From IMG/VR virus record IMGVR_UViG_3300029774_000001: 64,000 nucleotides of DNA; one strand, given 5' to 3'. Both the position numbers and the translations under genes were made by a program. How positions within the stretch are numbered: the stretch's first letter is position 1; the number at the start of each line of letters is the position of its first letter. Below the pieces are notes generated by a model. That model made no database searches and was not told where the DNA came from. It saw only the letters and a list, made by a program, of their open reading frames with translations. The DNA is from a virus. Below, one piece after another: positions 8,377 to 25,158 of this stretch.

Positions 8377-9831
8377 ATGGCTCAAAAGTTGTCTGCCGGA
8401 TTCATGGCAGAATTATTCAAGCTTGTGTATATGGATTTGAATATCACCAGGATGGTGGTAAATAATCTGACTTATCAGTTAATACCCAAAGAGTGGCCCG
8501 GGTTCAAATTCTTGCTAAAAGAGGCAACAGAAGTATTAAAGGAAAAAGATAAGGTTCCTTCTTTGGGCGTGGTGTCCCAAAAATACGCTGATAGTGATTT
8601 TGTGATTGAAGCGATAGATGCTGTGCAGTCAGCCGCCAAAGTAGACAAGGAAATCATTATAGACCAGTTGGAAGCGTACATTAAAGATGTGGAATTCCAG
8701 CTACTTTCTAAAAAAGTACATGATTTGTACGAAGAAGGAAAGAAAGAAGATGCTATACGGGTAAATGCGGAAGAGAGCCAAAGAATTTTATCCCTATCAT
8801 TAAGGCATGAGGCAGGCGGTTTTCAGAAAGTGTTCTCTGATTTTGACAAACGAATGAAGAGGAGACGGGAAGAAGAAGAGGGGGAGGTTCCATCACGCGT
8901 AATGTTCGGACTTGATAAGATAGACCAGATTTCAGAAGGCGGTGCCACAATGGAAGATACCGTGTTATGGATAATGCGTTCGGGTGTCGGTAAGTCTACT
9001 GTATTGAGATATCACGGTATGCAGGCAGCTTTTGACGGACACCCGGTCTTGCATATACAGTTGGAGGGCGGTGCGCGTGCGTGTCTGGAAAGATACGACC
9101 AGTTTTGGACCGGGCAAAAATACGGGAACATCAGAAAAGGTGTCATAGATGACAAGTTAGCCGAGAAAATAGAAAAGGCTTTTGAAAACATGAAATCCTA
9201 TTCCAAGGACATAGATGTTTATTCTTTTGAAAAATTCGGGCAGGCTACTATGGTGGATATCCGTAACGTGATAGTTTCCTATTACAAGAAAAACGGTTAT
9301 TATCCGCATGTATTGATATTGGATTCGTTAGACCTTGTGGCAACAGGAACAAATAGAGTTGTAGACAATAACCCTACATTCAAAAAAGAAAAATTACAGA
9401 CATGTGCACAACTTTTGAAAAATTTATGTGTAGAGTTTAAAATGGTGGGATTTACGGCAGCACAAGCCGGAAATGTGCCGTTGGAAATATGGGACAATTC
9501 GGACAAAGTGATAGACAGAAGCTATACGGAAGGGGACAGGACACTTGTAAAGCCGTTTTCCTTTGTGTTTACCGGGAACCGGACAAGAGAGGAAAAGAAA
9601 CAGAACATAATGCGTATCTATATGGATAAGGTACGCGATTATGATACGGTAAAAGATACCTTCCCTATTGTGACGGATTACGGCAGGGGACGTTTTTGTG
9701 ACAAGGCGCTGACAGCCGAATATTACGGAGGTGACAAGGGTTTCACGTCCTCTACTTCTGAAAAGAAGACAAGAAAGAAAAAGGACGAAGGCGGTGAAAA
9801 GCAAAATGATGTTAAAACAGAGGTGATTTAG
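8377..9831 (+). CDS. dnaB: DnaB/T4 gp41-like replicative DNA helicase
   Basis: Walker A 'MRSGVGKSTVL' and Walker B-like 'VLILDSLD', with a ~190-aa N-terminal domain before the RecA-like core. The gene lies just upstream of the primase. Confidence 0.8.
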   Translation: MAQKLSAGFMAELFKLVYMDLNITRMVVNNLTYQLIPKEWPGFKFLLKEATEVLKEKDKVPSLGVVSQKYADSDFVIEAIDAVQSAAKVDKEIIIDQLEAYIKDVEFQLLSKKVHDLYEEGKKEDAIRVNAEESQRILSLSLRHEAGGFQKVFSDFDKRMKRRREEEEGEVPSRVMFGLDKIDQISEGGATMEDTVLWIMRSGVGKSTVLRYHGMQAAFDGHPVLHIQLEGGARACLERYDQFWTGQKYGNIRKGVIDDKLAEKIEKAFENMKSYSKDIDVYSFEKFGQATMVDIRNVIVSYYKKNGYYPHVLILDSLDLVATGTNRVVDNNPTFKKEKLQTCAQLLKNLCVEFKMVGFTAAQAGNVPLEIWDNSDKVIDRSYTEGDRTLVKPFSFVFTGNRTREEKKQNIMRIYMDKVRDYDTVKDTFPIVTDYGRGRFCDKALTAEYYGGDKGFTSSTSEKKTRKKKDEGGEKQNDVKTEVI

Positions 9832-9893
9832 ACATAAGCACTTGCGTATGTCATAACATAATCTTATCTTTGTAGTGTCTTCTTAAGGGAGGC
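9806..9893 (+). promoter_or_regulatory. promoter/operator cassette copy 3 (overlaps the helicase 3' end)
   Basis: 'aatgatgttaaaacagaggtgatttag' encodes the last helicase codons. Palindrome at 9831..9852; -7 box TAtcTTTG at 9865..9872; then 'gtcttcttaagggaggc', shared with copy 8. Confidence 0.6.
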
Positions 9894-9965
9894 AAGAAAA
9901 GAAGGTGAAAGACTGTAAAGAACATCTTTTTTGGGATATATTGTTTATGAATTAGTTTAGAGGAT

Positions 9966-10298
9966 ATGAAAAGATATAAAGTTGGAGAAGTATTTGAATA
10001 CGAAGGCATGATATTGAAAGCGATAGAAGATGATTTGAAACAAGAAGAAAGTGGATGTAAATATTGTGCTTTAAACAAATTTGTGTGCAGCCATATAGAT
10101 TGTGGTACAAGAATGAATCCAAGTATTCGTTTTATTGAAGTTTCAAAAGAAAAACTTTTTGCGGATGCACTGCCAATAATCCAAGGTGCGCCTATGCCAC
10201 CGCTTGAAGATAATACGAATTTTCTTGATGATTTGGATTTGAAGCCGAAAAAGAAAAGCTTTTGGAAACGGTTAATGTTTTGGAGGAAAGATGTTTAG
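9966..10298 (+). CDS. hypothetical protein (Cys cluster)
   Basis: 110-aa ORF containing 'CKYCALNKFVCSHIDCG'. Confidence 0.55.
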   Translation: MKRYKVGEVFEYEGMILKAIEDDLKQEESGCKYCALNKFVCSHIDCGTRMNPSIRFIEVSKEKLFADALPIIQGAPMPPLEDNTNFLDDLDLKPKKKSFWKRLMFWRKDV

Positions 10299-11292
10299 GG
10301 TTGACAAAAACGAGGTAATATCCGAATTGAATTTGTCCTTGTTCGGAGCAAAAGGTTTCATGCAGGATAGGAACAAGGAATGCCCTTTTTGTAATAAAAA
10401 AGGGAAATGGGGGATAAAATTCAACGATGCCGGGAATAATGGTGCATTCCATTGTTTCAAATGTGGCATGAAAACCACCTTAAAAAAATTCTTGGAGAAG
10501 ATAGGAAGAAAAGACCTCATAAAGCAGGATTACGAGAACACGATAAAGATGCAGAAATTGACCCCTCTAATAGACGATGAAGAAGAGGAAACAGCAGAGG
10601 AAATCAAGGAATGCACCCTTCCTAAAAAACTGGAATATATAGAAAAGGACGAATATTTGGATAAGAGGGGGTTTGTGAAAAGATATTATGAAGAATTCCG
10701 TCCGGCAGAAACAAAATTCTTTCTTGAAAGAAAGCTGCACGATAAGTTCATATTCCAGTTTACAATGAACGGCAAATTAGCCGCATGGCTGGCACGCTCA
10801 AAGAAAAGTAAGGAGTGGCACGAAGAGAACCTTCAAAGATTCAAGGAGGGCAAAGAAAAGCTTGTATTGAGGTATGAAAATTCACGTGACGGATTCTCCC
10901 ATGTGATAGGAGGATATGACAATATAACGGACGAGACGGACACGGTTATAATCGTGGAAGGAATGTTCGACTACATATCGGTAGACACGAAGCTGCACCT
11001 TTATGAATCGCCCGATATAAAGTGCGTGTTTACATTCGGTAACAATATGGGGCTAAGCCAGATAAGGTTATTGAGGGACAAACCGGGCATAAGGAATGTG
11101 ATTCTGATGTATGACCCGGACAAACCGGAAATGATTAAGACAGTATCAATGACCCTACAAAGGTACTTCAATGTGCAGATTGCCGAACTGGAAGATAAAA
11201 AGAAAGACCCTGGGGACGCAACACAGGAAGAACTCTTATGGGCGCTTGACAATATGACGGAACCGATTAATTATTATACTAAGCATTTATAG
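10291..11292 (+). CDS. dnaG: DNA primase (zinc finger + TOPRIM)
   Basis: CHC2-type finger 'CPFCNKKGKWG...FHCFKCG' and TOPRIM acidic motifs 'IIVEGMFDYISV' and 'LMYDPDKPE...KKDPGD'. Confidence 0.8.
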   Translation: MFRVDKNEVISELNLSLFGAKGFMQDRNKECPFCNKKGKWGIKFNDAGNNGAFHCFKCGMKTTLKKFLEKIGRKDLIKQDYENTIKMQKLTPLIDDEEEETAEEIKECTLPKKLEYIEKDEYLDKRGFVKRYYEEFRPAETKFFLERKLHDKFIFQFTMNGKLAAWLARSKKSKEWHEENLQRFKEGKEKLVLRYENSRDGFSHVIGGYDNITDETDTVIIVEGMFDYISVDTKLHLYESPDIKCVFTFGNNMGLSQIRLLRDKPGIRNVILMYDPDKPEMIKTVSMTLQRYFNVQIAELEDKKKDPGDATQEELLWALDNMTEPINYYTKHL

Positions 11293-11350
11293 TATTGATT
11301 TTTTGCCATTTATCCTAATTTTTGTTAGATTTGAAGTCAAAAATAAGGAT

Positions 11351-11842
11351 ATGGAAAAATCGCGGAAAATCAGTCTGGAGCAGTTTGTAATTAACTTGCA
11401 ATTGGAGTATTTGAGTTGTAGATTACGCTCGATAGTTTACAATCGTATAGAAAGTGTCGAGCTTGTGAAGATATATAAGGACATAGCGGAGAAGAAGAAA
11501 GCAAAAATTCTGAACTTGAAACAAAGGTTCCGTCTTGGTACGATGTTCGATAGCGACAAGGCGTTTTCTGATTTTTATTTGAAGGAATTTTTGCAGGAAT
11601 ACGGGTTGCCGAACTTGCAATATTCGGAGAAAACGAAAAAGTCGGTTATGTTTTGGGACAGGTTCCACCTATTGAAACCAGGCACTATAGTGATATACAA
11701 GGGAAAGGAATATAAGGTGAAAATAAACCATCCAAATGACGATAATGTGGTAATATGGGTTAATGACATACCGGAACAGATTCCTTATACCTACTTCAAA
11801 ATGAGATGGTTAGAAAAAATCGATATGAAAGATTTAAAATAA
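11351..11842 (+). CDS. hypothetical protein
   Basis: Track ORF 11303..11842 (non-ATG start). The first ATG, at 11351 (MEKSRK), is preferred. Confidence 0.55.
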   Translation: MEKSRKISLEQFVINLQLEYLSCRLRSIVYNRIESVELVKIYKDIAEKKKAKILNLKQRFRLGTMFDSDKAFSDFYLKEFLQEYGLPNLQYSEKTKKSVMFWDRFHLLKPGTIVIYKGKEYKVKINHPNDDNVVIWVNDIPEQIPYTYFKMRWLEKIDMKDLK

Positions 11843-11853
11843 TGGAGATAACA

Positions 11854-11886
11854 TTTGTTTATCTCAAAATTAAATTGTTATATTTG
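11854..11886 (+). promoter_or_regulatory. Bacteroidota-type promoter (-33 TTTG / -7 TAtaTTTG)
   Basis: TTTG at 11854..11857 and TAtaTTTG at 11879..11886, 21-nt spacing, 23 nt upstream of ATG 11910. Confidence 0.55.
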
Positions 11887-11909
11887 CAGTGTAATTAAAG
11901 AACAAAAGT

Positions 11910-12437
11910 ATGAATTATTTCGAGTATGAAGAAAAGGCGGCTACTACAGCTTGCTATAACGAAAAAGTGGCTTTGTCCTATGTGACGCTTGGCTTGTGTT
12001 CGGAGATGGGAGAAACTTACGAGAAAATCAATAACGAGGCAGAAACGGAAGAAATCTCTAAAGAAATCGGAGATATGTTTTGGTATCTCGCTATGATTCG
12101 TAAAGAATGCAATCTCGATATTGAGGGTTGGGATTGGAAAGAAGCTTTGGCAAATGCGGAAGGTGCAGGCGTGTTTGATTTGCCCGTGGAAGTCGGAAAG
12201 ATTGCAGACCAGGTTAAAAAGTGGTTGCGTGATGATTGGAAAGAAGCCGAGCAGAATGTATTCCCGGAAGCAAGAAAGAAAGCTGTTTTGGAAGCCTGGA
12301 AAAACGCCTGGAAGGTTATAAACAGTATGATTAACCGCGTCGGTCTTGATACGGAAAAGATTGCCGAGCAGAATATCGAAAAACTGTTTTCACGCAAACA
12401 GCGTGACAAAATTCATGGAGCAGGAGACAACAGATGA
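11910..12437 (+). CDS. mazG: MazG-like nucleoside triphosphate pyrophosphohydrolase
   Basis: 'GLCSEMGETYEKI' and 'EIGDMFWYLAMI' match the MazG EExxE / ElgDvlwyl helices. Confidence 0.75.
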   Translation: MNYFEYEEKAATTACYNEKVALSYVTLGLCSEMGETYEKINNEAETEEISKEIGDMFWYLAMIRKECNLDIEGWDWKEALANAEGAGVFDLPVEVGKIADQVKKWLRDDWKEAEQNVFPEARKKAVLEAWKNAWKVINSMINRVGLDTEKIAEQNIEKLFSRKQRDKIHGAGDNR

Positions 12438-13015
12438 GAAATTTTGACAAAATATTAATGACCGGGGCGCAGGGTACAGGGAAAACAACCCTATTGAAAG
12501 CCTTGCAGAACGAACCGGAATTTGACAACTGGAAGTTTTACACGAATGTTGTCAGAACGATGGTTGAAGAAGAGGGAATAGCCATCAATAAGGAGGGTAC
12601 TTCTGAATCACAAAAGAAAATATTCGACAAATACACTCAAATAATGGAAGATGCTATGAAACAACCTTCCATTAGTGACAGATGTATTATTGATGTGAAC
12701 GCGTACACTTCATGGCTTTTTGACAACTGTAATCCGAAAGACAAGGATTATAACAACCTGGCAGAAGAGGACTTCAAAGAAAAGCGCCAGATTGTAAAAC
12801 GGAAATACGAATTTCCTTTGCTTGTCTATCTTCCTATTACATTCAGATTGCAGGGTGACGGTGCGCGTTCGGAAGACGAGGAATACCAGAAGGAAATCGA
12901 CCGTAAAATAAAGCAGATTGTCGATAATTACGGAATACCATATATTTCTGTTTCCGGTTCAACGGAAGAACGTGTGCAGCAGATTAAGGATGCCGTATTT
13001 GGAAAGGAGAAGTAA
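12434..13015 (+). CDS. P-loop NTPase, NadR/AAA_28-like (putative nucleoside or nucleotide kinase)
   Basis: Walker A 'MTGAQGTGKTTLLKAL' near the N-terminus of a 193-aa protein. ATGA overlap with mazG. Confidence 0.55.
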   Translation: MRNFDKILMTGAQGTGKTTLLKALQNEPEFDNWKFYTNVVRTMVEEEGIAINKEGTSESQKKIFDKYTQIMEDAMKQPSISDRCIIDVNAYTSWLFDNCNPKDKDYNNLAEEDFKEKRQIVKRKYEFPLLVYLPITFRLQGDGARSEDEEYQKEIDRKIKQIVDNYGIPYISVSGSTEERVQQIKDAVFGKEK

Positions 13016-13019
13016 GACA

Positions 13020-13379
13020 ATGGAAGTTTCTTTGTTGACTTTGAGAAATGTGGGACGGAAGCTTGGAATGCAGAACGTTTCCGGATTTAAGAAAGAAGAC
13101 CTTTTGCAGCAGGTTGTCGAAAGACTGGAAGCAAAAGGAAAGACGATTGAAGAATATGCAAAGGAAGTTTCGATAAATACCCAAAAGGGGTATGTCAAGA
13201 AAAAGTTTAACCTTTCACCTAAAGGAAAAAACCCGTACAAGAAAGGAAGTATATCGTATAAGGTGTGGGAAGAACTCGCAAAGAATGACGGTCGTTCATT
13301 CAGCCGGATTGCAAAAGAACTGGGAACGCATTACAACGTTGTTTCCGTTTGTTGCAGGAACCATTTTAATAAATCATAA
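13020..13379 (+). CDS. hypothetical DNA-binding protein (SAP/Rho-N-like N-terminus, HTH-like C-terminus)
   Basis: Track ORF 12918..13379 with the start moved to ATG 13020. Contains 'FKKEDLLQQVVERLE' and 'SFSRIAKELGTHYNVVSV'. Confidence 0.45.
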   Translation: MEVSLLTLRNVGRKLGMQNVSGFKKEDLLQQVVERLEAKGKTIEEYAKEVSINTQKGYVKKKFNLSPKGKNPYKKGSISYKVWEELAKNDGRSFSRIAKELGTHYNVVSVCCRNHFNKS

Positions 13380-13410
13380 ACTTGCCGTTTTTATTTGGAT
13401 TTGATTTCAT

Positions 13411-13445
13411 GGGGAGTGTAAGTAAAATACACTTCACTCCCCTTT
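13411..13445 (+). terminator. hairpin/terminator candidate
   Basis: Stem ggggagtg (13411..13418) / cactcccc (13435..13442) followed by ttt. The loop is long, so the call is only moderate. Confidence 0.4.
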
Positions 13446-13458
13446 ACACCCTAAAAAT

Positions 13459-15054
13459 ATGGAAGAGTTGTATAAAGACTTAATCAAATATTTGGAAGAT
13501 AATTTTTTGTCTTTCAATGTTTTAGATAATTATATTGTAGAAATTGACGGGCAGACATTTGAATTGTTCGAGCCTTTTAAGTGGGATAAGGACGAAAACG
13601 GGATTTTCTTTGACGATTCGTTCCAGTGGGTAGGAGATAGGACAGAATGTGATAACTATGTTTTCCGGTTTGGCGATGTATGGTATTATCTGAAAAAGGG
13701 AGACGAAAACAAGGTAAAACTTAACCGATTGCAGTATATCGGAAAAGCGAATTTGTTTGACGAAAGTTTGAGGTTTGACACCTATATAGGAGTGCATGGT
13801 AATTTTGAGTTGATGAACGGGATGCACTTTTATTCCGACTGGGTGGAAAAGGCGAAATTCATGGGGATAAGGGCGCTTGGCATATGCGAAAAGAATACGC
13901 TTGCATCAGCGTTCAAGTTTCAAAATGCGTGTCTAAAAAGCGACATAAGACCTATATTCGGTATGGAAGTTACCGTATATAATGAACAGAAGGACGTTAG
14001 ATATACGGTAAAACTGATAGTCAAGAATAAGGAGGGGTGGAATAACCTATTGAAAATAAACAAAATTCTGAATGTTGACGAAAAAGGTTTTATCACGGAA
14101 AAGGAATTGCAGGAAATGAAAGACGGATGTTTTCTACTACTTGACCCGAAAACATGTACGTTTGAAAATCTCCCTATATTGTCAAGAAAATGGAATGACA
14201 CTTATTACCAGCTTGATACCGTGGAATACAAGAAGAATGACCGGGATAAAAAATATCTTGACAATCTGAAAAAGTTCGTGGGTGTGTATAAGCCCGTGGC
14301 GGTATGTGACGCTTGGTACCTGGAAAGACGGTGCGCCCCTATAAGAGAAAAGCTTAACAGATTGGCAAAGGTAGTGAATTATGAGAGTGACAACCAGTAC
14401 ATGAAGAACTATCAAGAGTATTACGAAGAACTGTCAAAACTGATATTGGACGAAGACAAGTTTTTCGGACTGTTTGAAGAAGCTTTGGTAAATCTTAATT
14501 ACATATCGGTAAATTGTAATTATTTGCTGGAGACACAAGTACGGCATGCACCCCAATATGTAATGACAGAAGAGGAGAAAAAGAAATATTCGTCCAATAC
14601 AGAAATGTTTGAATCGCTTGTATTTGACGGACTGGCAGAACATCCGGAAATACTGGATAGATACAGTGAAGAAGAACTGACGGAAAGACTGAACACGGAA
14701 ATATCCATCATAGAAGAAGGCGATGTAGTGGACTACTTTCTGATGCTGAGGGACATTATCAGATGGGGAAGGGATAATAACATTTTGGTCGGACTGGGGA
14801 GAGGCTCCTCCGCTGGCTCTTTGGTGTCCTATCTTCTTGGTATTGTTAATGTAAACCCGTTGGAATACGAACTCCTATTCAGTCGATTTTTGACAAAGGG
14901 TCGTTTAATTCGGCATGAAGAGGAAGAAGTGGTAATGATAAACGGAGAAAAAGAAATATCCGGAAATGCTTTTATAAAGATTATCAGAAATGACGAGGAA
15001 ATGATAATCAGAGCGAAAGAGCTAAAAGAAGGTGACGAACTGATAAACGAATAG
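13459..15054 (+). CDS. dnaE: DNA polymerase III alpha (DnaE) N-terminal fragment: PHP domain to start of palm
   Basis: PHP-region motif 'ALGICEKNTLASAFKFQNACLKSDIRPIFGMEVTV'. '...GRGSSAGSLVSYLLGIVNVNPLEYELLFSRFLTKGR' is colinear with bacterial DnaE up to the residue before the SMPDIDxDF motif, followed by a 49-aa non-DnaE tail. Confidence 0.8.
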   Translation: MEELYKDLIKYLEDNFLSFNVLDNYIVEIDGQTFELFEPFKWDKDENGIFFDDSFQWVGDRTECDNYVFRFGDVWYYLKKGDENKVKLNRLQYIGKANLFDESLRFDTYIGVHGNFELMNGMHFYSDWVEKAKFMGIRALGICEKNTLASAFKFQNACLKSDIRPIFGMEVTVYNEQKDVRYTVKLIVKNKEGWNNLLKINKILNVDEKGFITEKELQEMKDGCFLLLDPKTCTFENLPILSRKWNDTYYQLDTVEYKKNDRDKKYLDNLKKFVGVYKPVAVCDAWYLERRCAPIREKLNRLAKVVNYESDNQYMKNYQEYYEELSKLILDEDKFFGLFEEALVNLNYISVNCNYLLETQVRHAPQYVMTEEEKKKYSSNTEMFESLVFDGLAEHPEILDRYSEEELTERLNTEISIIEEGDVVDYFLMLRDIIRWGRDNNILVGLGRGSSAGSLVSYLLGIVNVNPLEYELLFSRFLTKGRLIRHEEEEVVMINGEKEISGNAFIKIIRNDEEMIIRAKELKEGDELINE

Positions 15055-15058
15055 TTGT

Positions 15059-17134
15059 ATGATAGTAAAAAATATTGAAATAAAACGTCGGGCAAAGACC
15101 GTATTAGGGTCAATGCCAGATATAGATACCGACTTCCCAGGCAGAAGACGAGACGAAATAAAAGCTTACATGGAAGAACGGTTCGGTAAGGAGCAGGTTT
15201 GTTCGCTTGGCACCTATACTACTCTCCAGCTAAAAGAGGCAATATCGGACATGGCGCGTGCAGACGGCATACCAGTACAGTTATACAGATGGTTTACCGC
15301 TTGTATCGGAGATGACAAGGAAAAGACGATAGAGGAGTTTTTTAAGACTGTATGCGGAAAGGAAGACCTAAAGAAGTTCGTGAAGGAACATACAGAAACG
15401 TTCAACGACATGTTGGTAGTTCTTGGTTCACCTAAAAGCCAGTCAGTGCATGCGTGTGGAACCGTAGTGTTGCCAGATGGAAAAACATCCTACGAATGGA
15501 TGCCCGTACATACACAAAAAGGACTTGTAGTTACGGACTGGGAAGGTTCGGAAGTGGAAGAGGCAGGCTTCCTAAAGGAAGATGTTTTGGGTATCATACA
15601 GTTGGATAAGTTCGAGGAAATGTTACGCTTGATAAAGGAGAACCACGGAATAGATATTGACATATACAGCTTGCCTTTGGACGATAAGCAGGTATTCGAG
15701 TATGCAGGTAAAGGATGGCTGGGAGATGTTTTTCAGCTTGGTTCAGCAGGATTATCCGGATATTGCGTAAAAATGAAACCGGAAAACATAAACGAACTGT
15801 CTGCATGTGTGGCTCTCTACAGACCTGGACCTATGGAAAACAATTTCCACAACGAATATATTTTGCGGAAGAACGGGGAAAAGGACTGGACAGAAGAAAT
15901 GCCTATAGGCGGTGAAGAAGTGGTGAAGAAAGATTTTGGACTACTTGTCTATCAAGAAAGTATAATGTTATTAGCCCAAAAACTTGCCGGATTTGATTCT
16001 GAAACAACAGACCTTTTGCGTAAATGTTTGGGGAAGAAGGATTTAAAGAAGATAAAACTTTATAAAGACAAGTTTATTACTAATTATGCAAAAAATTTTG
16101 CTTCTAAGGGTGTCACAAAGGAATACGCGGAAAATCTTTGGAACCAAATGGAAGAGTTTGCAAAATATTCGTTCAACAAATCTCATTCCGTATGCTATGG
16201 TATGACCGCTTATATATGCCTATGGCTTAAGGTACATTATCCTATTGAGTATTGGAGTGCTACATTCTCGTTTGCGAAAGATGAAAAGATACCTTATTAT
16301 GTAAACGAAATACAGCAGTCCGGTGAGATAAAGATACATCCAGTAGATATCAACAAGTCAGATATAAACATTGTGTCCGATTATCGTACAAACAGTATGT
16401 ATTGGGCATTCAACGCAGTAAAACAATGTGGGGAAAGAGCACAGGAACATATATCGGAGGAGAAAAAGAAGAACGGGCCTTTTTTCTCTTTGGAGGAATT
16501 TATAGACAGATGTGTAATTAAAGGCAGTCCGGTAAATAAATCTGTCATTGAGAATTTGATATTTGCAGGAGCGTTCGACGAATTGGAGAATATCCAGGAA
16601 CCTAAAGACCGTTTGGCGCTTATTGAGATGTACCGCGAGAACAAAAGGGTTAAGATATTGGAGGATAAGGATTTACTTACCAATATTATGAAAGTCCGCA
16701 AAGAACGCAATAATTGGTGGTGGCTGTTGCAGCAAAAAAGAACGTCCGGTTTTGCATTTTTTGATTATTACGATTTGGTAAATGAATATCATATGCCTAA
16801 ATTAGACGACGAAACGGAATTCCAGGATGTGTCGCAGATAAAATTTTGGGACATTAATTCAAAGAAAACCCGTCGTGCCGTGATAGGCGGTTATGTGATT
16901 GAGATAATAGAGAGGAAAAGCAAGAAGGGCATATTTGCCACTATAGTATTGGAAAGTAATTATGAGTTTATAAATGTAACTATTTTCCCAGAGTTGTTTG
17001 AAGAATACGGAGAGTTTTTAAGGGGTAGTAAAAAGAACATTTTGTTGGTTAACGGTGTGATTGTGTGGGATAAGTTCAGAGGAGAATATATTTTGCAGGC
17101 GAATGTTAATTCATTGTTTACAGTATTGACGTAA
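15059..17134 (+). CDS. dnaE: DNA polymerase III alpha (DnaE) C-terminal fragment: catalytic palm, fingers, HhH, OB
   Basis: After 16-18 extra residues come 'SMPDIDTDF', then 'ALYRPGPM' and 'FAKYSFNKSHSVCYG'. It is in a different frame from the N-fragment, with only 4 nt between the ORFs. Confidence 0.8.
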   Translation: MIVKNIEIKRRAKTVLGSMPDIDTDFPGRRRDEIKAYMEERFGKEQVCSLGTYTTLQLKEAISDMARADGIPVQLYRWFTACIGDDKEKTIEEFFKTVCGKEDLKKFVKEHTETFNDMLVVLGSPKSQSVHACGTVVLPDGKTSYEWMPVHTQKGLVVTDWEGSEVEEAGFLKEDVLGIIQLDKFEEMLRLIKENHGIDIDIYSLPLDDKQVFEYAGKGWLGDVFQLGSAGLSGYCVKMKPENINELSACVALYRPGPMENNFHNEYILRKNGEKDWTEEMPIGGEEVVKKDFGLLVYQESIMLLAQKLAGFDSETTDLLRKCLGKKDLKKIKLYKDKFITNYAKNFASKGVTKEYAENLWNQMEEFAKYSFNKSHSVCYGMTAYICLWLKVHYPIEYWSATFSFAKDEKIPYYVNEIQQSGEIKIHPVDINKSDINIVSDYRTNSMYWAFNAVKQCGERAQEHISEEKKKNGPFFSLEEFIDRCVIKGSPVNKSVIENLIFAGAFDELENIQEPKDRLALIEMYRENKRVKILEDKDLLTNIMKVRKERNNWWWLLQQKRTSGFAFFDYYDLVNEYHMPKLDDETEFQDVSQIKFWDINSKKTRRAVIGGYVIEIIERKSKKGIFATIVLESNYEFINVTIFPELFEEYGEFLRGSKKNILLVNGVIVWDKFRGEYILQANVNSLFTVLT

Positions 17135-17146
17135 AGATATTTTGAT

Positions 17147-17677
17147 ATGAAAATTATGGTAGAAATCGGTACCAAGACCGTTGTTTTGGTATCACCGGAC
17201 AAGGACGAAGAAATAGAACTTGACGATGTTACGACAATCAATTACTCGAACCTCTATGGAGAGGCGGTAACGGTATCTGGATTGCTTAACAAGGTCGGTC
17301 TAATGAAAGTTGAATATGAGAAGAAAGCGAAGGAAGAGAAACTGTTTTGTGATGTGTTTGCAGCTAATTTGAGGAAGAAATTAAGGCGAGAAGCGGCTAC
17401 GAATGGAGGAAGAATAACGATTGATGGAGAATCTTTTAAGCTGACTGAAAAAGGATTGGAGGACGCTATATTACTCAATGAACAGTATCAGAAAAATCTG
17501 ATGAATCTTATTGAGATAGAATCGAAGCGAGACAAGTTAGACACCCTATTTTGGGCAGTACAAAGCAAGGACAAGAAACTTAACAATTTGTTGCCAAAGA
17601 TTGTACCGCAAGACTTTGAAAAAGAGCTTATTGAAGGAAAAATAAATACTTTTAAGATAGTGAAAACCGATTATTAA
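17147..17677 (+). CDS. hypothetical protein (replication-module accessory?)
   Basis: 176-aa ORF between dnaE and the SSB gene; no motif recognised. Confidence 0.55.
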   Translation: MKIMVEIGTKTVVLVSPDKDEEIELDDVTTINYSNLYGEAVTVSGLLNKVGLMKVEYEKKAKEEKLFCDVFAANLRKKLRREAATNGGRITIDGESFKLTEKGLEDAILLNEQYQKNLMNLIEIESKRDKLDTLFWAVQSKDKKLNNLLPKIVPQDFEKELIEGKINTFKIVKTDY

Positions 17678-17696
17678 TTTTTAAAAATTTTGTGTT

Positions 17697-19034
17697 ATGG
17701 CTTTTGACAGAAGTAAGTACAAGAAAGCGAGTGTAGAATCAATTGATGAAACAGTAGGAAAAGCAGCCGCAACAATGGGCGGTGGTTTTGGACAAGGCGG
17801 CAGAGCCTCATTTTTTAATCTGAGCGAAGACGGAAGATATGTATTGCGCGTATTGCCGTCGTTGACAGGGAAACCCTATATGCCGAGAAAGACGGTTAAA
17901 CTTCCTATTGAGTGTGCGGTATATGACAAGGACGGGAAAGACACCGGGAAGAAGGAAATCAGACAAAGAGATGTCTTTACTTCTGATATCCACAGCAACC
18001 GGATGAATGGAGAAGATGCAGTGCTGACCTATATCAGCCACGTGTATAACCTGGCAAATGATATCCAGGACAAGGAAGAGCGCGCAAAATTCCTCTATCC
18101 CATCAGCGGTTACCGCAACAAGCAAAAACAATGGATATGGGGCATGAAAGCCATGCTTAACTATGTGGCTTATGTATGGGACGAAAATGACGTGTACCGT
18201 CTTGATTTGCGCCCGGATTGGTGGAAGAAAATGAAGAACATTTCTATGGAGCGCGCAGGCGGTTCTGACGATGGTATTATTAATCTTGACATCTTTTCTG
18301 ACCCGGACGAAGGTTATCCGTTGATTGTCAATGTCACCACGGACGAAAACAAAAAGAAAAATTTTGACATTACTTGTGGTATGCCGGATGCTAATAAGCG
18401 CCAGACTTGGGACGATTTCTTTGCTAAAAACCGTGTATCAGACGAAGTGTTCGGTATCATGGAAGAATTGCCTACCCTGGATGATATGTATGTAGATGTC
18501 TTTTCACGTAAAGACTGGGATATGCAGTTGGAAGGATTGGAAAGAATCGACGAGGAACAATCATACGGTATTTTCCAAGACGACGTATTCTTGAACAAAC
18601 TCGAAGAACTTGACAAATTGGTTCCGGAAGAGGACGAAATCAAGGAAAAGAAAGCTCCTAAAAAAGCCCCCGAGACAAAGAAGGTGAAAACGGAGGAACC
18701 GAAAGAAGAGCCAACAAAGACGGAAAAAAAAGCAGGCGGTTATCCTACATTGACGAACCTCAAAAAGGAACTCCGTGCCTACATTGCCGATAACTACGAA
18801 GATAAGGAATTACCGGAAGAGTTGACTGTAGCAGAACTCCGTAAATGGTACGACATTGCACAGGAAGGTGGCGAACTGCCTTTTGAGGATTACGAAGAGC
18901 CGGAAGACGAAGAAAAAGGAACAGAAGAGACGAAACCGGAAGATACGGCAGTTGAAGAAAGGGAAGCATCAGCAAGCGTTCCTAACTCTATTGCATCACG
19001 GTTGAGAAACTTGAAAGCAAGAACTTCAAAATAA
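17697..19034 (+). CDS. single-stranded DNA-binding protein, T4 gp32-like (tentative)
   Basis: 'DGRYVLRVLPS' resembles T4 gp32 'GQAVIRFLPS'. A Lys/Glu-rich linker and strongly acidic C-terminus (EDYEEPEDEEKGTEE), plus a location in the replication module. Confidence 0.5.
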   Translation: MAFDRSKYKKASVESIDETVGKAAATMGGGFGQGGRASFFNLSEDGRYVLRVLPSLTGKPYMPRKTVKLPIECAVYDKDGKDTGKKEIRQRDVFTSDIHSNRMNGEDAVLTYISHVYNLANDIQDKEERAKFLYPISGYRNKQKQWIWGMKAMLNYVAYVWDENDVYRLDLRPDWWKKMKNISMERAGGSDDGIINLDIFSDPDEGYPLIVNVTTDENKKKNFDITCGMPDANKRQTWDDFFAKNRVSDEVFGIMEELPTLDDMYVDVFSRKDWDMQLEGLERIDEEQSYGIFQDDVFLNKLEELDKLVPEEDEIKEKKAPKKAPETKKVKTEEPKEEPTKTEKKAGGYPTLTNLKKELRAYIADNYEDKELPEELTVAELRKWYDIAQEGGELPFEDYEEPEDEEKGTEETKPEDTAVEEREASASVPNSIASRLRNLKARTSK

Positions 19035-19043
19035 ATCATACAA

Positions 19044-19066
19044 GGAAGGGTAATTTCTACCCTTCC
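19044..19066 (+). terminator. stem-loop terminator candidate
   Basis: Perfect 9-bp stem ggaagggta / tacccttcc with loop atttc, 10 nt after the stop. The following tract, attatt, is U-poor. Confidence 0.5.
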
Positions 19067-19081
19067 ATTATTCCTATTATT

Positions 19082-19702
19082 ATGAAAAATCTTTACAGAA
19101 TAATTCTCATTTCGGGAATGATAATATTACTCGTATTGTTATTTCTATCTATCAAGAAGGCAAGGGAAAACGAAAGGTTGATATATGAAGTAGAATTCTA
19201 TACTGATTCTTTGAACCGATACACAAAAATTTATAATTCTGAAAGCTTTTCTAAACTGAAGAAAGAAAACAAAGAATTGTACAATCAATTGAAGGAAAAG
19301 GAAGCACTTGTAGAGGCAGTGGAATTTGAATGGAAATACAAGTATGAAGGACTGGAAAAGCAGGTTTCTGAATTAAGAAAAACGGACAGCCTCTATACAT
19401 TCAAGGAAGAAACCGATACGGTGGGATATGACTTGCAGGTATGGGCTACACACCTGGCAAAATATAAGATTAACTTTAATATAACCAACAAGTTTTTATT
19501 GACAAATCAGCGTATAGGGGACAGTAACCGTATGGAGATAACTTCCCAATTGCCCGGAAAGATAGGCGATGTCACAATGTGGACGAAACCGGAGAAAAAG
19601 AAAAGATTCGGTTTAGGGTTGTCCGTAGGTGCCGGATATGGAGTATTCAATAAAGATTTTGATGTGTTTGTAGGATTAAGTGGAACATATTTAATTTGGT
19701 AA
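19082..19702 (+). CDS. hypothetical membrane-anchored protein
   Basis: N-terminal TM helix 'IILISGMIILLVLLFLSI', a coiled-coil-like middle region, and a Gly-rich C-terminus 'GLGLSVGAGYGVF'. Confidence 0.55.
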   Translation: MKNLYRIILISGMIILLVLLFLSIKKARENERLIYEVEFYTDSLNRYTKIYNSESFSKLKKENKELYNQLKEKEALVEAVEFEWKYKYEGLEKQVSELRKTDSLYTFKEETDTVGYDLQVWATHLAKYKINFNITNKFLLTNQRIGDSNRMEITSQLPGKIGDVTMWTKPEKKKRFGLGLSVGAGYGVFNKDFDVFVGLSGTYLIW

Positions 19703-19704
19703 TT

Positions 19705-19908
19705 ATGTTTGTACAGATAAATAACAAAAGGATAAAGATTACTTCTATCAGTAGATACAATGATGAGGGGTATTCACAGTCAACCAAGAAGTTCAGAATA
19801 GCTTTAAAAATTTCCAATGTCTGGGAAAGCTTCTATTTTGACAAGGAAGTAGAGAAAGATAATGTTTTGAAAAATCTTGACAATACATTAAAGGTGACAG
19901 CGCTATGA
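19705..19908 (+). CDS. hypothetical protein
   Basis: Track ORF 19696..19908 (TTG start). ATG 19705 is preferred. Confidence 0.5.
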   Translation: MFVQINNKRIKITSISRYNDEGYSQSTKKFRIALKISNVWESFYFDKEVEKDNVLKNLDNTLKVTAL

Positions 19909-20933
19909 CCGGGAAAATGATAATAAGTACAGACTGGCACTTGAAGACGTCCAATATCGAAGAAATAACGGAATTGCAAAGGCAGGAATTGAACGTAGCG
20001 GAAGACAACGGTATAACCGACCATGTGTGGCTTGGTGACATATTCGATTCCCGTATATCACAGAGGCAGGACGTCTTAAATGCTTTTTCCTCTATACTTG
20101 ATATGTACGCGAGGATGGGACACACAGTATATTGCATTCCAGGAAATCACGATAAGAGCGATTATAGTTCGGACAGGTCGTTTCTTGATGCGTTTAAATA
20201 TCATAAAGGGTTTAAGTTGATAACTGACTTGGACGCTTTCGAGATAGGCGGTGTAATATGCTATTTTATGCCGTTTTTCGACAATGCGATATGGTTAAAA
20301 GGGATGGGTGATGTGCTGAAAGAAAAGAATCATAAGACGCATGTACTTTTTACTCATATTGCTTTCCAGGGAAGCAGGAATAATGACGGTAGCGAGGTAG
20401 AAAGCGATATAAAACCTTCTTTGTTTAAAAACTTCGGTATGGTATTTTCCGGACATTACCACGATTTCCAAGAAATAGGAAAGAATATCGTGCACTTGGG
20501 AAGCATCACTCAGAACAATTTCGGGGAAGATGATAAAAAGGGGTTTTGGTTATTGGATGATGATTTGACATACGCGTTTATTCCGTCAACAGGGAAGCGA
20601 TACAGAAAGGTTACTGTGAACCTGGAAAACACGACTTTCAAGCAAGCGGATAAGATTGTAAAAGATTTTCAGAAGAAAAACAAGGAAGATTTTGTGCGCG
20701 TGGAATTCGTAGGTACGAAAGATGCAATTTCCTCCATTGACAAGGAAGAGTATAGAAAGCTTGGTGTGGATGTCAAAGTTAAGTCCGTAGAACTGGAAAC
20801 GGAAGAGGTGGAGACAGCAGAAGAAATCAAAGCTTTGTCCGGTTCCGATATTGCAGAAAAATTCAAGGGATTTTGCGAACAGAACGATTACTCCTATAAT
20901 GAAGGAATGGAAATTTTAAAGGAGGTGTTATAA
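19905..20933 (+). CDS. sbcD: SbcD/Mre11 (T4 gp47-like) nuclease
   Basis: Calcineurin-like phosphoesterase motifs 'ISTDWHL', 'WLGDIFD', 'IPGNHD', 'FTHIAFQG' and 'FSGHYH'. Confidence 0.8.
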   Translation: MTGKMIISTDWHLKTSNIEEITELQRQELNVAEDNGITDHVWLGDIFDSRISQRQDVLNAFSSILDMYARMGHTVYCIPGNHDKSDYSSDRSFLDAFKYHKGFKLITDLDAFEIGGVICYFMPFFDNAIWLKGMGDVLKEKNHKTHVLFTHIAFQGSRNNDGSEVESDIKPSLFKNFGMVFSGHYHDFQEIGKNIVHLGSITQNNFGEDDKKGFWLLDDDLTYAFIPSTGKRYRKVTVNLENTTFKQADKIVKDFQKKNKEDFVRVEFVGTKDAISSIDKEEYRKLGVDVKVKSVELETEEVETAEEIKALSGSDIAEKFKGFCEQNDYSYNEGMEILKEVL

Positions 20934-21904
20934 TGGGATTGGAAGAATTATTTGGAAGAATAGAGAAACGTTTCGGAAAGGAAGCGGTAGTAGGCAACGA
21001 TATAAAGGTAGACACCGTGTCTTCCGGCAGCATGGCATTTGACGAGATATTAGGAGGAGGTTTTGCACTTGGAAGAATACACGAAATATACGGAGGATTT
21101 TCGAGCGGCAAAAGCTCTGCGGCATTGCATCTAAGTGCATCCGTACAGAAAACGCTTGGGAAAGCGGTAGGGTATGTAGATACGGAACAAGCACTTGACC
21201 TGGAATACGCAAAAGCGCTTGGAGTTGATTTAAGCCGCGACAAGTGGATAATGTCGCAGCCGGATAGTGCGGAACAGGCGCTTGAAATCGTGCGTGAGAT
21301 GCTGGAGGTGCCGGAAATCGGATTGGTAGTGCTTGATTCGGTTGCTGGATTGGTGCCGGAAGCTGTTTTGCAGGGTGAGGCAGGAGATGCAAAGATAGCG
21401 CTTGTTGCACGCCTTATGTCACAGCAGTTAAGCATCCTAAAAAATGTATGTAAGAAAAACGGAAACATTCTCCTATGTATCAATCAGACAAGGCAGAAAA
21501 TCGGAGGTATGGGATTCGGTCCTACGACAACCACACCAGGAGGTGAAGCCCTTAAATTCTATGCCACCCAAAGAGCGGAATTTGCCCGTATAGGCACGGA
21601 AAAGACCGATGGAGTGGCAACGGCCAATAAGACACAAATAAAAGTCGTAAAGAATAAGATTGCACCCCCTTTCCGTGTATGCCAGGTAATGTTAGAGTAT
21701 GGTGTAGGATTTGACACGATACAGGAGCTTATAGATATGTCTATAAGAGAGGGGATTTGCTCTAAAAAGGGTGCTTGGTTTTACTATGGCGAGACCCGGT
21801 TAGGACAGGGAATGGATAACGCTAAAAAAGCGTTGTCGGATAAGGATTTGTTTAATGAAATTAAAAATAAATTGACAGAGACGTTATGTATCCCGAAAGA
21901 TTGA
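20933..21904 (+). CDS. recA: RecA-family recombinase (bacterial RecA-like)
   Basis: 'GSMAFDEILGGGFALGRIHEIYGGFSSGKSSAALH' (Walker A), 'YVDTEQALDLEYAKALGVD', and 'LVVLDSVAGLVP' (Walker B). Confidence 0.85.
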   Translation: MGLEELFGRIEKRFGKEAVVGNDIKVDTVSSGSMAFDEILGGGFALGRIHEIYGGFSSGKSSAALHLSASVQKTLGKAVGYVDTEQALDLEYAKALGVDLSRDKWIMSQPDSAEQALEIVREMLEVPEIGLVVLDSVAGLVPEAVLQGEAGDAKIALVARLMSQQLSILKNVCKKNGNILLCINQTRQKIGGMGFGPTTTTPGGEALKFYATQRAEFARIGTEKTDGVATANKTQIKVVKNKIAPPFRVCQVMLEYGVGFDTIQELIDMSIREGICSKKGAWFYYGETRLGQGMDNAKKALSDKDLFNEIKNKLTETLCIPKD

Positions 21905-23886
21905 TATTAAGAAATTTTTTGTCATTTGAAGAACTTGATTACACCTTTACAAAAGAAACTTTGGGCGTGACTGGAGAGAACCGGACAGAGGAAGACCAGC
22001 TAAGCAATGGTAGCGGCAAAACGGGACTGTCACAAGGCTTGTTCTATGCGATATATGGAGTTAATCTAAGAGGAAAGGAAGACAAGAAACTGATACGTAA
22101 AGGCACGAAAGAAGCCTATACCAAGGTTGAAATATTTTGTCAAAAACGGAAAGAAACACTGATAATTGAGCGTACAATTCCGTTGAAAAGTTCTTCCAAA
22201 GTATCGCTGACCCTAAAGAAAGATGATGTGGAGACACCCGTAACGGTAGCCACTGTACTGGATGCGAATAAATACGTGATTAACTGGATTGAGATTACAC
22301 CGGAAGATGCCAAGTCCTATTATATCGTAACCAAGGGTAATTATTCGTCTTTTTTTCGTTCGTCCAATACGGAGAAACTTGCCTTGATAAGTCGCTTTGT
22401 CAATTTCTCCAATATTGACAAGACAAAAGGTGTGATTTCCGAAAAAGTCGGAATATTGGAACAAGAATTGCACAAAGAAGAATGCTTGAAAAATGTTGCG
22501 GAAGGCAAGAAACAAGCCTATGAGGAACAGATACAGCAAGTGTTAAGCGAAGACCCGGAAGAAAAGAAAAAGGGTGTAATAGGCGAAATTCAGTCCGAAA
22601 TATATTCTTTACAAATTCTTAATGAAGACCTTGTAAAGACACGCATTCCCAAAGCGGAAAAGAATATCGAAGGTGTAGACAAGGATATCGAAGGGCTTAT
22701 AAAGCTGAAAGAAGAAGTAAGTAAAGAACTTGAAAGCTTCGATATGGATGCTTACAAGGACACCTATAAGGAGATAGACACGGAAATAGCCGGATTGAAG
22801 AAAGACAAGTCGAACAAGGAAGAAAGGCGTAAAGATTACGCATTGAAATTAGCTGATTATGAGAAGAAATTACAGAAGGTCGAAGTATTGCTTTCTGGCG
22901 TCATTGTGTGCCCTAACTGCAATCATAAGTTTTTTATGGATGCTGACAAGGATTTTGAAGAACTGGAGGCTGACAAAGAGGCTTATAAAACAGCCATTGA
23001 TAAGAATACAGTAAAGAAAAACGAATATGAGACCTCTATAAACGAACTGGAAGACCTTATCTCCCAATACCAGGATGTAAGAAAAGAAACGGAAGAGGAA
23101 GAACGTAAACTGCGTGTCCGTCGTGGAAAGGTGGTTGATAAGATGATGGAGGTGGAAGACCGTATAAGGGAGCTTGAACGCGAGAAAAAGGGATATGAAA
23201 ACTCCATTGTAAAGATGCGTTCAGAAGTTGAGACAAACCGTTCTCTCATTGATTCCAAGACTGGGTATATAGAGGAATTGAAAAAGCAGAAAGCGGAAAG
23301 ACCCTCTATCAAAGACCAGGAAAAGGCGGTAGAAAAACTTTCCAAGGACATAGAGGAAGGCAACAAAAAAATTCTTGACAAGAAAAACGAGATTTTCAAA
23401 GTACAGCAATGGGATAGCCGTTTTAAAGACTTTAAGATGTATCTGGCAATGGAGCAGATAAAGAATATCCAAAGCGCGGCCAATGATGTACTAAAGAAAA
23501 TGAAAAGTGATTTACGTCTGATGATTGAAGGTTTCAAACGGAACGCGAACGGAACGTTGAAAGAGGAGATAACACCCTATGTTTTCCGTGATGAGATGGA
23601 AAGCTTTTTCTTTTATTCGGGTGGTGAACAAGCACGTGTAGAGGTAGCTCTTATCATTGCGATACAAAGCATGATTAACGCGACGAAACAGTATGGAGGC
23701 ATGGACTTTTTATTACTGGACGAGGTGCTGGAAAGTAGCGATTCTCTGGGGATAGAAAACATAATTTCCTCTACGGAATTTTTGAAACAGTCTATATTGA
23801 TTGTTACCCATGTGCCGAAACTCAATGACGAGATAAAACAACTGAAAGTAATCAAAGAAAACGGAATATCAAGATTGGAGGTGTAA
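21886..23886 (+). CDS. sbcC: SbcC/Rad50 (T4 gp46-like) ATPase
   Basis: Walker A 'SNGSGKTGL', a long coiled coil with a central 'CPNC' zinc hook, signature 'SGGEQARVEVAL', and Walker B 'FLLLDEV'. Confidence 0.85.
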   Translation: MYPERLILRNFLSFEELDYTFTKETLGVTGENRTEEDQLSNGSGKTGLSQGLFYAIYGVNLRGKEDKKLIRKGTKEAYTKVEIFCQKRKETLIIERTIPLKSSSKVSLTLKKDDVETPVTVATVLDANKYVINWIEITPEDAKSYYIVTKGNYSSFFRSSNTEKLALISRFVNFSNIDKTKGVISEKVGILEQELHKEECLKNVAEGKKQAYEEQIQQVLSEDPEEKKKGVIGEIQSEIYSLQILNEDLVKTRIPKAEKNIEGVDKDIEGLIKLKEEVSKELESFDMDAYKDTYKEIDTEIAGLKKDKSNKEERRKDYALKLADYEKKLQKVEVLLSGVIVCPNCNHKFFMDADKDFEELEADKEAYKTAIDKNTVKKNEYETSINELEDLISQYQDVRKETEEEERKLRVRRGKVVDKMMEVEDRIRELEREKKGYENSIVKMRSEVETNRSLIDSKTGYIEELKKQKAERPSIKDQEKAVEKLSKDIEEGNKKILDKKNEIFKVQQWDSRFKDFKMYLAMEQIKNIQSAANDVLKKMKSDLRLMIEGFKRNANGTLKEEITPYVFRDEMESFFFYSGGEQARVEVALIIAIQSMINATKQYGGMDFLLLDEVLESSDSLGIENIISSTEFLKQSILIVTHVPKLNDEIKQLKVIKENGISRLEV

Positions 23887-23887
23887 C

Positions 23888-24403
23888 ATGAAAGTATTTA
23901 TGGGATTTGACCCTGGAACAAAGGGGTTTGTTTCGATGATTGCGGAAGATGGGTCCTTTATCAAGGCTGAACCTATTTTCCGGGACATTAAGGTAGTGGA
24001 TATGATAGAGACGGCAAACAGGCTGCTTGCTTTTGTCGAAGGGTATGAAGTCCGGCATGTTGTGATAGAGGATGTACATGCGCTGTATGGGTCTTCTGCA
24101 AAAGGAACGTTTACATTCGGTTATAATTCATGCGTACCGGAATTTTTTTGTGCAATTGCCGGATTGCCATACACGAAGATACCGCCTAAAAAATGGCAGT
24201 CGGACATGCACAAGGGTATAAAGATGGTAACAAAAAACGATGGTACCAAGACAGTAAAGGACGTAAAGAAAATGAGTATCGTGGCTGCACACCGTATTTT
24301 CCCGGATGTGAGTTTAAAACGGTCCAGCAGGAGCCTAAAGGACGATGATAACTTTGCCGATTCTTTATTGATGGCTGAATATGGACGTAGACATTTTAAA
24401 TAA
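23888..24403 (+). CDS. ruvC: RuvC-like Holliday junction resolvase
   Basis: 'MGFDPGTKGF' (Asp 1), 'VVIEDVH' (Glu) and 'DDNFADSLLMAEYG' (C-terminal Asp pair), in an RNase H-fold-sized protein (171 aa). Confidence 0.7.
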   Translation: MKVFMGFDPGTKGFVSMIAEDGSFIKAEPIFRDIKVVDMIETANRLLAFVEGYEVRHVVIEDVHALYGSSAKGTFTFGYNSCVPEFFCAIAGLPYTKIPPKKWQSDMHKGIKMVTKNDGTKTVKDVKKMSIVAAHRIFPDVSLKRSSRSLKDDDNFADSLLMAEYGRRHFK

Positions 24404-24410
24404 CAATGGT

Positions 24411-24731
24411 ATGGAAGAGTATATAAGAAAAAGTTTTGTGGTGCCTAACGCAGCAATAAAGGTTGCTTGTTTTAAGGCAGGAATGACGGAAGAAGATTAT
24501 TATAATACATTGGGAGAATGCCGAATGTATGGTGATAATAAAGAGAAGAACAAAGAATACCAAAGGGAATTGTGCCGGAAGATATTCAGACCGACACCGG
24601 AAGAAGAGGAAGAAGATATCAACAGGTGGAAAGAAGACGGTGCAAAAGTTATGAGCTTCGAGGATTGTGTAACTTTGGTATTGGAAGGATTGCCAATTAA
24701 AACAAAGAAAGATGATATATTGGAAATGTGA
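24411..24731 (+). CDS. hypothetical protein
   Basis: Track ORF 24381..24731. The start is moved to ATG 24411, after the ruvC stop. Confidence 0.5.
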   Translation: MEEYIRKSFVVPNAAIKVACFKAGMTEEDYYNTLGECRMYGDNKEKNKEYQRELCRKIFRPTPEEEEEDINRWKEDGAKVMSFEDCVTLVLEGLPIKTKKDDILEM

Positions 24732-25044: not shown

Positions 25045-25158
25045 TATGTTAAAACAGTGTTAAAATGGCATAAGCAGTTGCGTATCTCATAACATAATCT
25101 TATCTTTGCATTGTGAGATTAAGAGATGATAAGTCAAACAAATAAAAAAGATAAGGTT
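25045..25158 (+). promoter_or_regulatory. promoter/operator/leader cassette copy 4
   Basis: Begins at the nucleotide after the upstream stop. Contains 'tatgttaaaacagtgttaaaa'; palindrome at 25067..25088; -7 box TAtcTTTG at 25101..25108; leader 'gtcaaacaaataaaa' at 25133..25147. Confidence 0.65.

Follow-up and report, generated by a model that had tools for sequence, protein, structure and literature searches.

A splicing-dead split-intein remnant as a probable docking pair in a two-gene phage DNA polymerase III alpha subunit

The Ssp/Npu DnaE intein of cyanobacteria is fully active in trans-splicing, and its two genes lie far apart in the genome. In the fractured genes of Dassa et al. 2009, the halves of a split intein flank a free-standing homing endonuclease, with three metagenomic DnaE loci among the cases, and an acidic N-half with a basic C-half is reported for split-intein association (PMC2677866). 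In the ribonucleotide reductase NrdA of Aeromonas phage Aeh1, tails at the break are essential without splicing, which provides a functional precedent for an enzyme that works in pieces (PMC3045599). Here we analyzed a stretch of 64,000 nucleotides (nt) from a virus (IMG/VR record IMGVR_UViG_3300029774_000001; the whole stretch is called the window), in which the DNA polymerase III (Pol III) alpha subunit, DnaE, is encoded by two open reading frames (ORFs), ORF-N and ORF-C. ORF-N ends in an extra peptide, the tail, and ORF-C begins with another, the head. We consider it likely that tail and head are a splicing-dead split-intein remnant, delivered by a homing-endonuclease cassette and retained as a non-covalent docking pair for the two-piece polymerase, a use for which no description was found in the literature searched.

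The two ORFs are in different frames, and ORF-C opens with an ATG at 15059, 4 nt past the stop codon of ORF-N, in agreement with a first-pass annotation of the same sequence (Table 1). The Pfam DNA_pol3_alpha profile is matched at positions 14-98 in ORF-N and 100-260 in ORF-C, so that the break is exact to one residue, between ..LLFSRFLTKGR and SMPDIDTDF, where that annotation had placed it; its readings of the 49-amino-acid (aa) tail and of the head, which is 17 aa long, were also correct. Across both ORFs we found PHP, a palm with PDxDxDF, fingers, HhH, and OB domains, as in a C-family replicative polymerase. The break is located within the palm, three residues ahead of the catalytic aspartates of the PDxDxDF motif, which in E. 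coli DnaE are Asp401 and Asp403. It therefore does not separate a PHP/exonuclease part from the polymerase core, as had been suggested, and, being inside the palm, it requires both chains to assemble to form one active site. Neither is it the cyanobacterial DnaE split-intein site, as had been recognized from the intact FAKYSFNKSH in ORF-C.

The tail is related to the N-terminal fragments of inteins. Although Pfam found no match to the tail alone, fused tail and head sequences repeatedly gave sub-threshold matches to Intein_splicing (E 7e-4 to 0.02) and PT-HINT (E 0.003), a hint that the profile comparisons below bore out. When a profile of 26 tail and head pairs was compared with PDB sequences, the best three matches were all inteins, namely the TFIIB mini-intein 5o9j (E 8.4e-5), the Aes123 PolB1 split intein 9hth, and PI-PkoII, and the alignment to 5o9j ran from the tail through the intein linker into the head. 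An exhaustive HMMER search of 1.84 billion representatives with a tail-only profile (E<=1e-3) returned 52 proteins, the majority of them DnaE N-fragments ending in the tail; the remaining matches inspected were N-halves of genuine inteins (E 1e-8 to 1e-3) in ribonucleotide reductases, PolB, PolA, and DnaE, all but one with Pfam Intein_splicing support, and those read as sequence held the canonical T..H. Consistent with this, 16 short-class tails, with the window tail first, aligned by hhalign to canonical intein N-fragment (IntN) sequences with 97% probability (E 1.2e-10), tail residues 5-49 corresponding to positions 46-92 of a 92-aa IntN. This alignment indicates the tail is the C-terminal half of an IntN, from the strand preceding block B up to the canonical split or homing-endonuclease-gene insertion point, and only about half of the Hint fold is present. 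The homology of the tail to intein N-fragments is thus well supported by sequence comparison, and the earlier impression of Hint-like strands holds for the tail. The head sits where the first strand of the intein C-fragment (IntC) would be; this position and the 5o9j alignment suggest an intein origin for it as well.

Tail-like Hint segments also occur outside DnaE. P0192, a metagenomic protein of 122 aa, starts like an IntC and continues with a short extein and a decayed tail without T..H, and P0181, a PolA-like protein of 254 aa, has an internal decayed Hint segment, again without T..H, that precedes a canonical IntN. Remnants of dead inteins may thus exist more widely.

To place the junction among relatives, we assembled 84 related loci, 80 of them from an IMG/VR scan. 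About 70 are split at the same residue and have alignable tails and heads, and 14 are unsplit, have no insert, and read GR-VKV-SLPD. The terminal extras at the break, which are missing from the unsplit homologues, comprise 39 to 91 aa for the tail, with lengths differing between clades, and 17 to 32 aa for the head. A long class, found in Bacteroides-type phages, has a tail of 77-91 aa starting with Cys or Ala and a head of 30-32 aa ending in H-G/A/S, G-G, or A-G; it has neither the block B His nor the terminal Asn, never ends in H-N, and on its sequence looks like an intermediate stage of decay. We failed to find any natural single-ORF DnaE carrying the insert, the full-coverage matches being unsplit enzymes with short linkers, and a tail-plus-head profile search for homologous proteins yielded 25 short fragments only, with no fused or full-intein version at this site.

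The same split is present in more than 60 independent phage contigs, in a human-gut phage scaffold, and in the cultured phages Cellulophaga phi13:1, phiST, and phi19:2, Tenacibaculum phage Larrie, and Bacteroides phage BS-TP1. The Cellulophaga phages and Larrie, which are Cbastvirus phages, share the split residue, a homologous tail (..VVKIIRNKKEISIFIHDIIEGDDLIKY), and a homologous head (MKIINIEQNTAPKLVNG), although they are just 38-45% identical to the window. Both halves are annotated in them as 'DNA polymerase III alpha subunit' (gp038/gp039 in phi13:1), and a two-gene DnaE is thus not previously undescribed, as had been suggested, having been deposited as two coding sequences (CDS) in the Cellulophaga phage genomes. 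No published interpretation of the Cbastvirus split or tails was found in the literature searched. In BS-TP1 (L003; PQ571274.1, 6038-7570), the DnaE C-fragment follows a Dda-like helicase gene at a place where no CDS is annotated and apparently runs off the start of the linear record, and the N-fragment is labelled only 'DNA polymerase'.

Both tail and head are under purifying selection. Among window-like alleles, at a synonymous divergence of 0.17-0.38, the ratio of nonsynonymous to synonymous polymorphism (pN/pS) was 0.108 in the tail and 0.183 in the head, and 0.05-0.075 in the adjoining polymerase core. The tails are acidic in 25 of 26 loci (mean -6.8) and the heads basic in 23 of 26 (mean +2.5), the same polarity as in the canonical split intein of a related locus, L085 (-5/+4). 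This polarity and the motif V.R.geE..I.A.EL.EGD.I are kept across clades of <30% identity. We modelled the junction with AlphaFold2 as a single-chain artificial fusion of 66 aa of the N core, the tail, the head, and 170 aa of the C core. The mean predicted local distance difference test score (pLDDT) was 81.6, with 10-residue blocks over 71-130 (most of tail and head) scoring 81-90, and the tail and head region was all-beta (strands 68-78, 82-85, 89-94, and 97-102 in the tail and 121-131 in the head). The model superposes on 2hpi, 4iqj, and 2hnh, and a Foldseek search with it ranked Pol III alpha or PolC at 1-19 and nothing but inteins at 20-36.

Taken together, the purifying selection, the charge complementarity, and the all-beta model suggest that tail and head dock, and the remnant may be needed for assembly of the polymerase or contribute to it. 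In the mechanism that we propose, the split intein would have arrived in a 'fractured gene' cassette that also brought a free-standing homing endonuclease, and would then have shed all of its splicing residues and roughly half of the Hint fold. The adjacent genes would yield the two chains in roughly equal amounts, the acidic tail and the basic head would zip into a small intermolecular beta-sheet module, like associating split-intein halves, and this module would clamp the palm halves, bringing ..TKGR beside SMPD.. as the palm closes around the catalytic aspartates. The first-pass annotation had considered a decayed split intein acting as a docking pair; the intein origin stands, on the tail homology, the modelled junction, and the missing catalytic residues, and the docking is what these data make plausible.

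Several points weigh against a docking role. The head has no significant similarity to canonical IntC (hhalign, 0.6%). Tail and head modelled alone reached a pLDDT of 46; the confident model is that of an artificial fusion, with only 3-4 homologues over the insert, and its tail-head contacts are deduced from secondary structure only. Closely related insert-free, unsplit DnaEs manage with a 3-residue linker. The tails of Aeh1 NrdA are dispensable for heterodimer formation, the halves dimerising without them (PMC3045599), and the palm halves might likewise assemble unaided. The last two points, and the variation in tail length between clades, are also what one may cite for tail and head being a neutral scar, that is, cassette leftovers without a role, with the palm halves meeting via their native domain interface. 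However, the pN/pS of 0.11 and 0.18, the motif and polarity retained by clades so diverged, and the confident all-beta junction model speak against such a scar, and we regard it as unlikely.

Could the remnant still ligate the two chains, by some non-canonical form of protein trans-splicing? The residue at +1 is Ser (15110-15112, of SMPD), and the remnants of the long class open with Cys or Ala and close with His-Gly/Ala/Ser. In the window, however, the +1 Ser is not diagnostic because the same Ser/Thr stands in unsplit DnaE as a native residue, and the remaining splicing apparatus is absent. The first tail residue is Leu and the block A segment is missing; block B reads S-G-N-A in place of T-x-x-H, its His having been lost in 26 of 26 tails compared; and the head ends in ..AKTVLG, with no blocks F and G, penultimate His, or terminal Asn. 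The lack of Cys/Ser1 and of the terminal HN had been seen correctly before. With the Hint fold half lost and no splicing residues left, no peptide bond would be formed between the chains, and ligation is very unlikely.

It is scarcely credible, too, that a single polypeptide arises through an event at the RNA or ribosome level at this junction, such as a group I intron, a frameshift, or a bypass. The insert of about 205 nt begins after U and ends with G, and bypass-like gaps exist elsewhere in the gene of relatives. However, selection on the insert acts at the protein level, and a structured RNA across 14905-15109 was searched for and rejected: Rfam was empty at gathering thresholds, and at E<=10 over 14600-15400 it gave only a chance opposite-strand snoRNA. 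A simple frameshift cannot join ORF-N and ORF-C because TGA TAA at 15041-15046 close the ORF-C frame just upstream of the junction, and these stops, together with the TAA TAA TAA of some relatives, exclude a frameshift or read-through fusion. Moreover, many split loci have their DnaE halves separated by 0.7-3.3 kb of other genes, among them those for GIY-YIG and HNH endonucleases, a methyltransferase, a Dda helicase, a PAPS reductase, and a nucleotide-metabolism block, which indicates the halves are separate proteins. Where no genes are inserted, the stop and start are 1-4 nt apart, suggesting coupled translation. An assembly or sequencing indel or a pseudogene, an a priori possibility alone and named earlier as what would undo the split, has a negligible chance of being the explanation, given the identical junction in many independent contigs of several datasets, the isolate genomes with two CDS, and the strong purifying selection on both ORFs.

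The DnaE split is the footprint of a homing-endonuclease cassette. Two loci with about 87-93% nucleotide identity to the window around the junction, L010 and L020, have a 686-nt block exactly between the N stop and the head ATG, whose 233-aa ORF has no Pfam match and shows, by eye, an HNH-like motif (DH..N..N). Endonuclease genes also lie between the halves in L050 and L059 (GIY-YIG) and L004 (HNH_3 and NUMOD4). The IMG/VR contigs L055, which is split, and L062, which is not, differ by a 1088-nt block and match at 96% identity on either side of it, indicating that the whole block is one recent indel. In L055 it consists of the tail, the stop, a GIY-YIG-like ORF (motif by eye, no Pfam match), the head, SLPD, and a 40-nt gap, which places the left boundary of the cassette at the Arg codon and its right boundary at the DxD codons.

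Other selfish elements occupy the same gene, and phage dnaE is a hot spot for them. In L085 (Logan SRR25247232, 2777-5354), roughly 95% identical to the window, the N-fragment is split again at GLGRG/SSAGS, equivalent to window 14805/14806, by a canonical split intein (CFLPDEKV...TKDHKF...; IntC MKLIKKKYSHYTGNVYDLEINNRRHSYVVGGALVHN/S) whose N-half ORF runs into a GIY-YIG endonuclease, resulting in a three-piece DnaE. The C-fragments of L010, L030, and L055 carry canonical cis-inteins of 136-277 aa at FNK/SHS (window 16157-16186), three residues from the cyanobacterial DnaE split-intein site, and that of L020 has one at DFGLL/VYQE in ORF-C; the sizes over the four loci are 136, 274-277, and 360 aa. 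The window is intein-free at FNK/SHS and LL/VYQE and has nothing but the 4-nt spacer between its halves; it keeps the dead remnant only, with no endonuclease and no other inteins.

The right edge of the cassette family carries a further peculiarity. Gaps of 1, 6, 7, 8, 23, 24, 37, or 40 nt separate the PD and ID codons of the C-fragment (window 15119-15127) in several dozen contigs from several datasets, the 23/24-nt insert alone being present in 23 contigs of an IMG/VR scan (gap-bearing loci: L004, L007, L010, L014, L017, L018, L020, L021, L026, L030-L035, L039-L045, L047-L049, L052-L055, L071/73/75, L081, and L085-L108). Two independent length variants, 23 and 24 nt, indicate that the insert is not read as codons. 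It mostly starts with a stop codon, or with AGG in one family. All 10 of the insert-bearing alleles folded have a stem-loop of about 8-13 bp in the head coding sequence whose end falls on the proposed take-off codon or no more than about 5 nt from it, and longer inserts contain a second GC hairpin. Take-off and pre-resume codons are cognate in several families (GAC/GAC, GAU/GAC, CCG/CCG, and AUC/AUU), but not in the commonest gap family. Wherever a locus extends to the next stop, the frame past the gap stays open for 650-1030 codons, and it is under strong purifying selection (pN/pS 0.018-0.12). On this sequence evidence, the gaps look like translational bypass elements of the gene-60 type tied to homing-endonuclease cassettes. 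The PD/ID site presumably serves the endonuclease as its target or confers immunity. The window has no gap, its codons run on uninterrupted, and the 5' stem is weak (z -1.9). The literature searched describes bypassing in T4 gene 60 and its homologues and in yeast mitochondria (byps), with a candidate in Streptomyces phage Hau3, and in no other system. In a separate context, L047 has 3.3 kb with seven ORFs of 87-301 aa between the DnaE halves, and its C-fragment reads CTT CCC TGA C ATC at 4790-4815, a prfB-like CCC_UGA_C +1 frameshift context that restores ..LPDID...

These observations raise the possibility, which we put forward tentatively and at somewhat less than even chances, that the window junction is the cured, empty-site state of a still-active cassette family composed of a Hint-remnant tail, a stop, a homing endonuclease, a start, a head, and a short coding gap. 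If so, a half-Hint free of chemistry would have been domesticated as the smallest natural heterodimerisation module derived from a split intein, building a polymerase active site from two chains, and window 15110-15136 would be the homing target of the endonuclease. In the relatives, the head mRNA would programme ribosomes to hop 6-40-nt gaps inside the PD/IDxDF codons, guided by a strong stem-loop that reaches up to the take-off codon, by a stop or rare codon next to it, and often by take-off and landing codons that are cognate. Such a bypass system would be unrelated in sequence to those of T4 gene 60 and its homologues, yeast mitochondrial byps, and the Hau3 candidate.

The coordinates of the DnaE features and of the neighbouring genes are collected in Table 1. 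By Pfam, a phage replication and recombination module spanning 8377-28219 surrounds the DnaE ORFs. No tRNA genes and no Rfam matches at gathering thresholds were found in the 64-kb window.

Table 1. Features of the split dnaE locus and its surroundings in the window
Feature	Coordinates	Strand	Evidence
ORF-N, DnaE N-fragment, 531 aa: PHP, first part of palm (to ..LLFSRFLTKGR), 49-aa tail	13459..15054	+	PF02811 PHP; PF07733 profile positions 14-98
GLGRGSSAGS codons, uninterrupted in the window	14791..14820	+	
Tail LIRHEEEEVVMINGEKEISGNAFIKIIRNDEEMIIRAKELKEGDELINE, 49 aa, net charge -7	14905..15051	+	hhalign, HMMER, pN/pS, junction model
Stop codon TAG of ORF-N	15052-15054	+	
Spacer TTGT, 4 nt, from ORF-N stop to ORF-C start	15055..15058	+	
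ORF-C, DnaE C-fragment, 691 aa: head, remaining palm with catalytic PDIDTDF, thumb, fingers, HhH, OB fold	15059..17134	+	PF07733 positions 100-260, PF17657, PF14579
Head MIVKNIEIKRRAKTVLG, 17 aa, net charge +4, one long beta-strand predicted	15059..15109	+	Alignment of intein 5o9j reaches head; pN/pS
SMPDIDTDF codons, uninterrupted in the window	15110..15136	+	
FAKYSFNKSH codons, intein-free in the window	16157..16186	+	
DnaB-like helicase	8377-9831		Pfam, weak, E 3.3e-4, below Pfam cut-off
Toprim primase	10291-11292		Pfam
MazG	11910-12437		Pfam
AAA_28 ATPase	12434-13015		Pfam
Calcineurin-like phosphoesterase	19905-20933		Pfam
RecA	20933-21904		Pfam
NAD-dependent ligase	26258-28219		Pfam

Inteins are usually held to splice or be lost, and here one seems to have been stripped of its chemistry and of half its fold, while selection apparently preserves what is left where an essential enzyme is broken. 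The remnant would be a case in nature of an intein exapted for docking two proteins, and it is a candidate for a minimal orthogonal dimerisation tag. A single gene family offers a stepwise series, from unsplit through canonical split intein with endonuclease and long dead remnant to short dead remnant, which shows a route by which genes in pieces become fixed. The locus and its relatives also mark the catalytic-motif codons of phage dnaE as contested ground among homing endonucleases.

Like the cyanobacterial Ssp/Npu DnaE, the Pol III alpha of this locus comes as two pieces that bear intein halves where they are broken, whereas the cyanobacterial break, ..FAEY/CFNKSH, is in the fingers. With the T4 gene 39/60 topoisomerase (mobA, 50-nt bypass; Manning and Atkins 2022, 10.1101/2022.08.31.505936) it shares an endonuclease cassette that splits a replication enzyme into two subunits, and the relatives of the window also share a short untranslatable gap at the downstream edge of the cassette, with an adjacent stop codon and stem-loops. 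It differs in that the window has no gap, the ends are Hint-derived, and the gene, the gap sequences, and their lengths (1-40 nt) are unrelated to gene 60.

Two other systems are also close. As in the fractured genes (PMC2677866), the break falls at a conserved site of an essential replication gene and leaves two neighbouring ORFs on one strand, with intein-derived new ends of which the N-half is acidic and the C-half basic. The relatives L010, L020, L050, L059, and L004 hold an endonuclease gene between the halves, and L085 is a textbook case 33 codons upstream in the same gene. Unlike in those cases, the Hint halves here are 49 and 17 aa, against N-halves of 88-105 aa, and the window has neither an endonuclease nor any of the five catalytic residues reported there as conserved. 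As in the mobE-split NrdA-a/NrdA-b of Aeh1 (Crona et al. 2011, PMC3045599), the enzyme is encoded by a gene in pieces without RNA or protein splicing, and extra terminal peptides are present, which in Aeh1 are C- and N-terminal tails from the mobile-element insertion that serve as interaction domains. The Aeh1 tails, however, are unique sequences and not Hint-derived, and they belong to a ribonucleotide reductase whose function was shown by experiment; in the polymerase described here, the function of the tails is deduced. The mechanism that we propose for this locus would join two known solutions, the intein-bearing break of fractured genes (PMC2677866) and the non-splicing tails of Aeh1 NrdA (PMC3045599).

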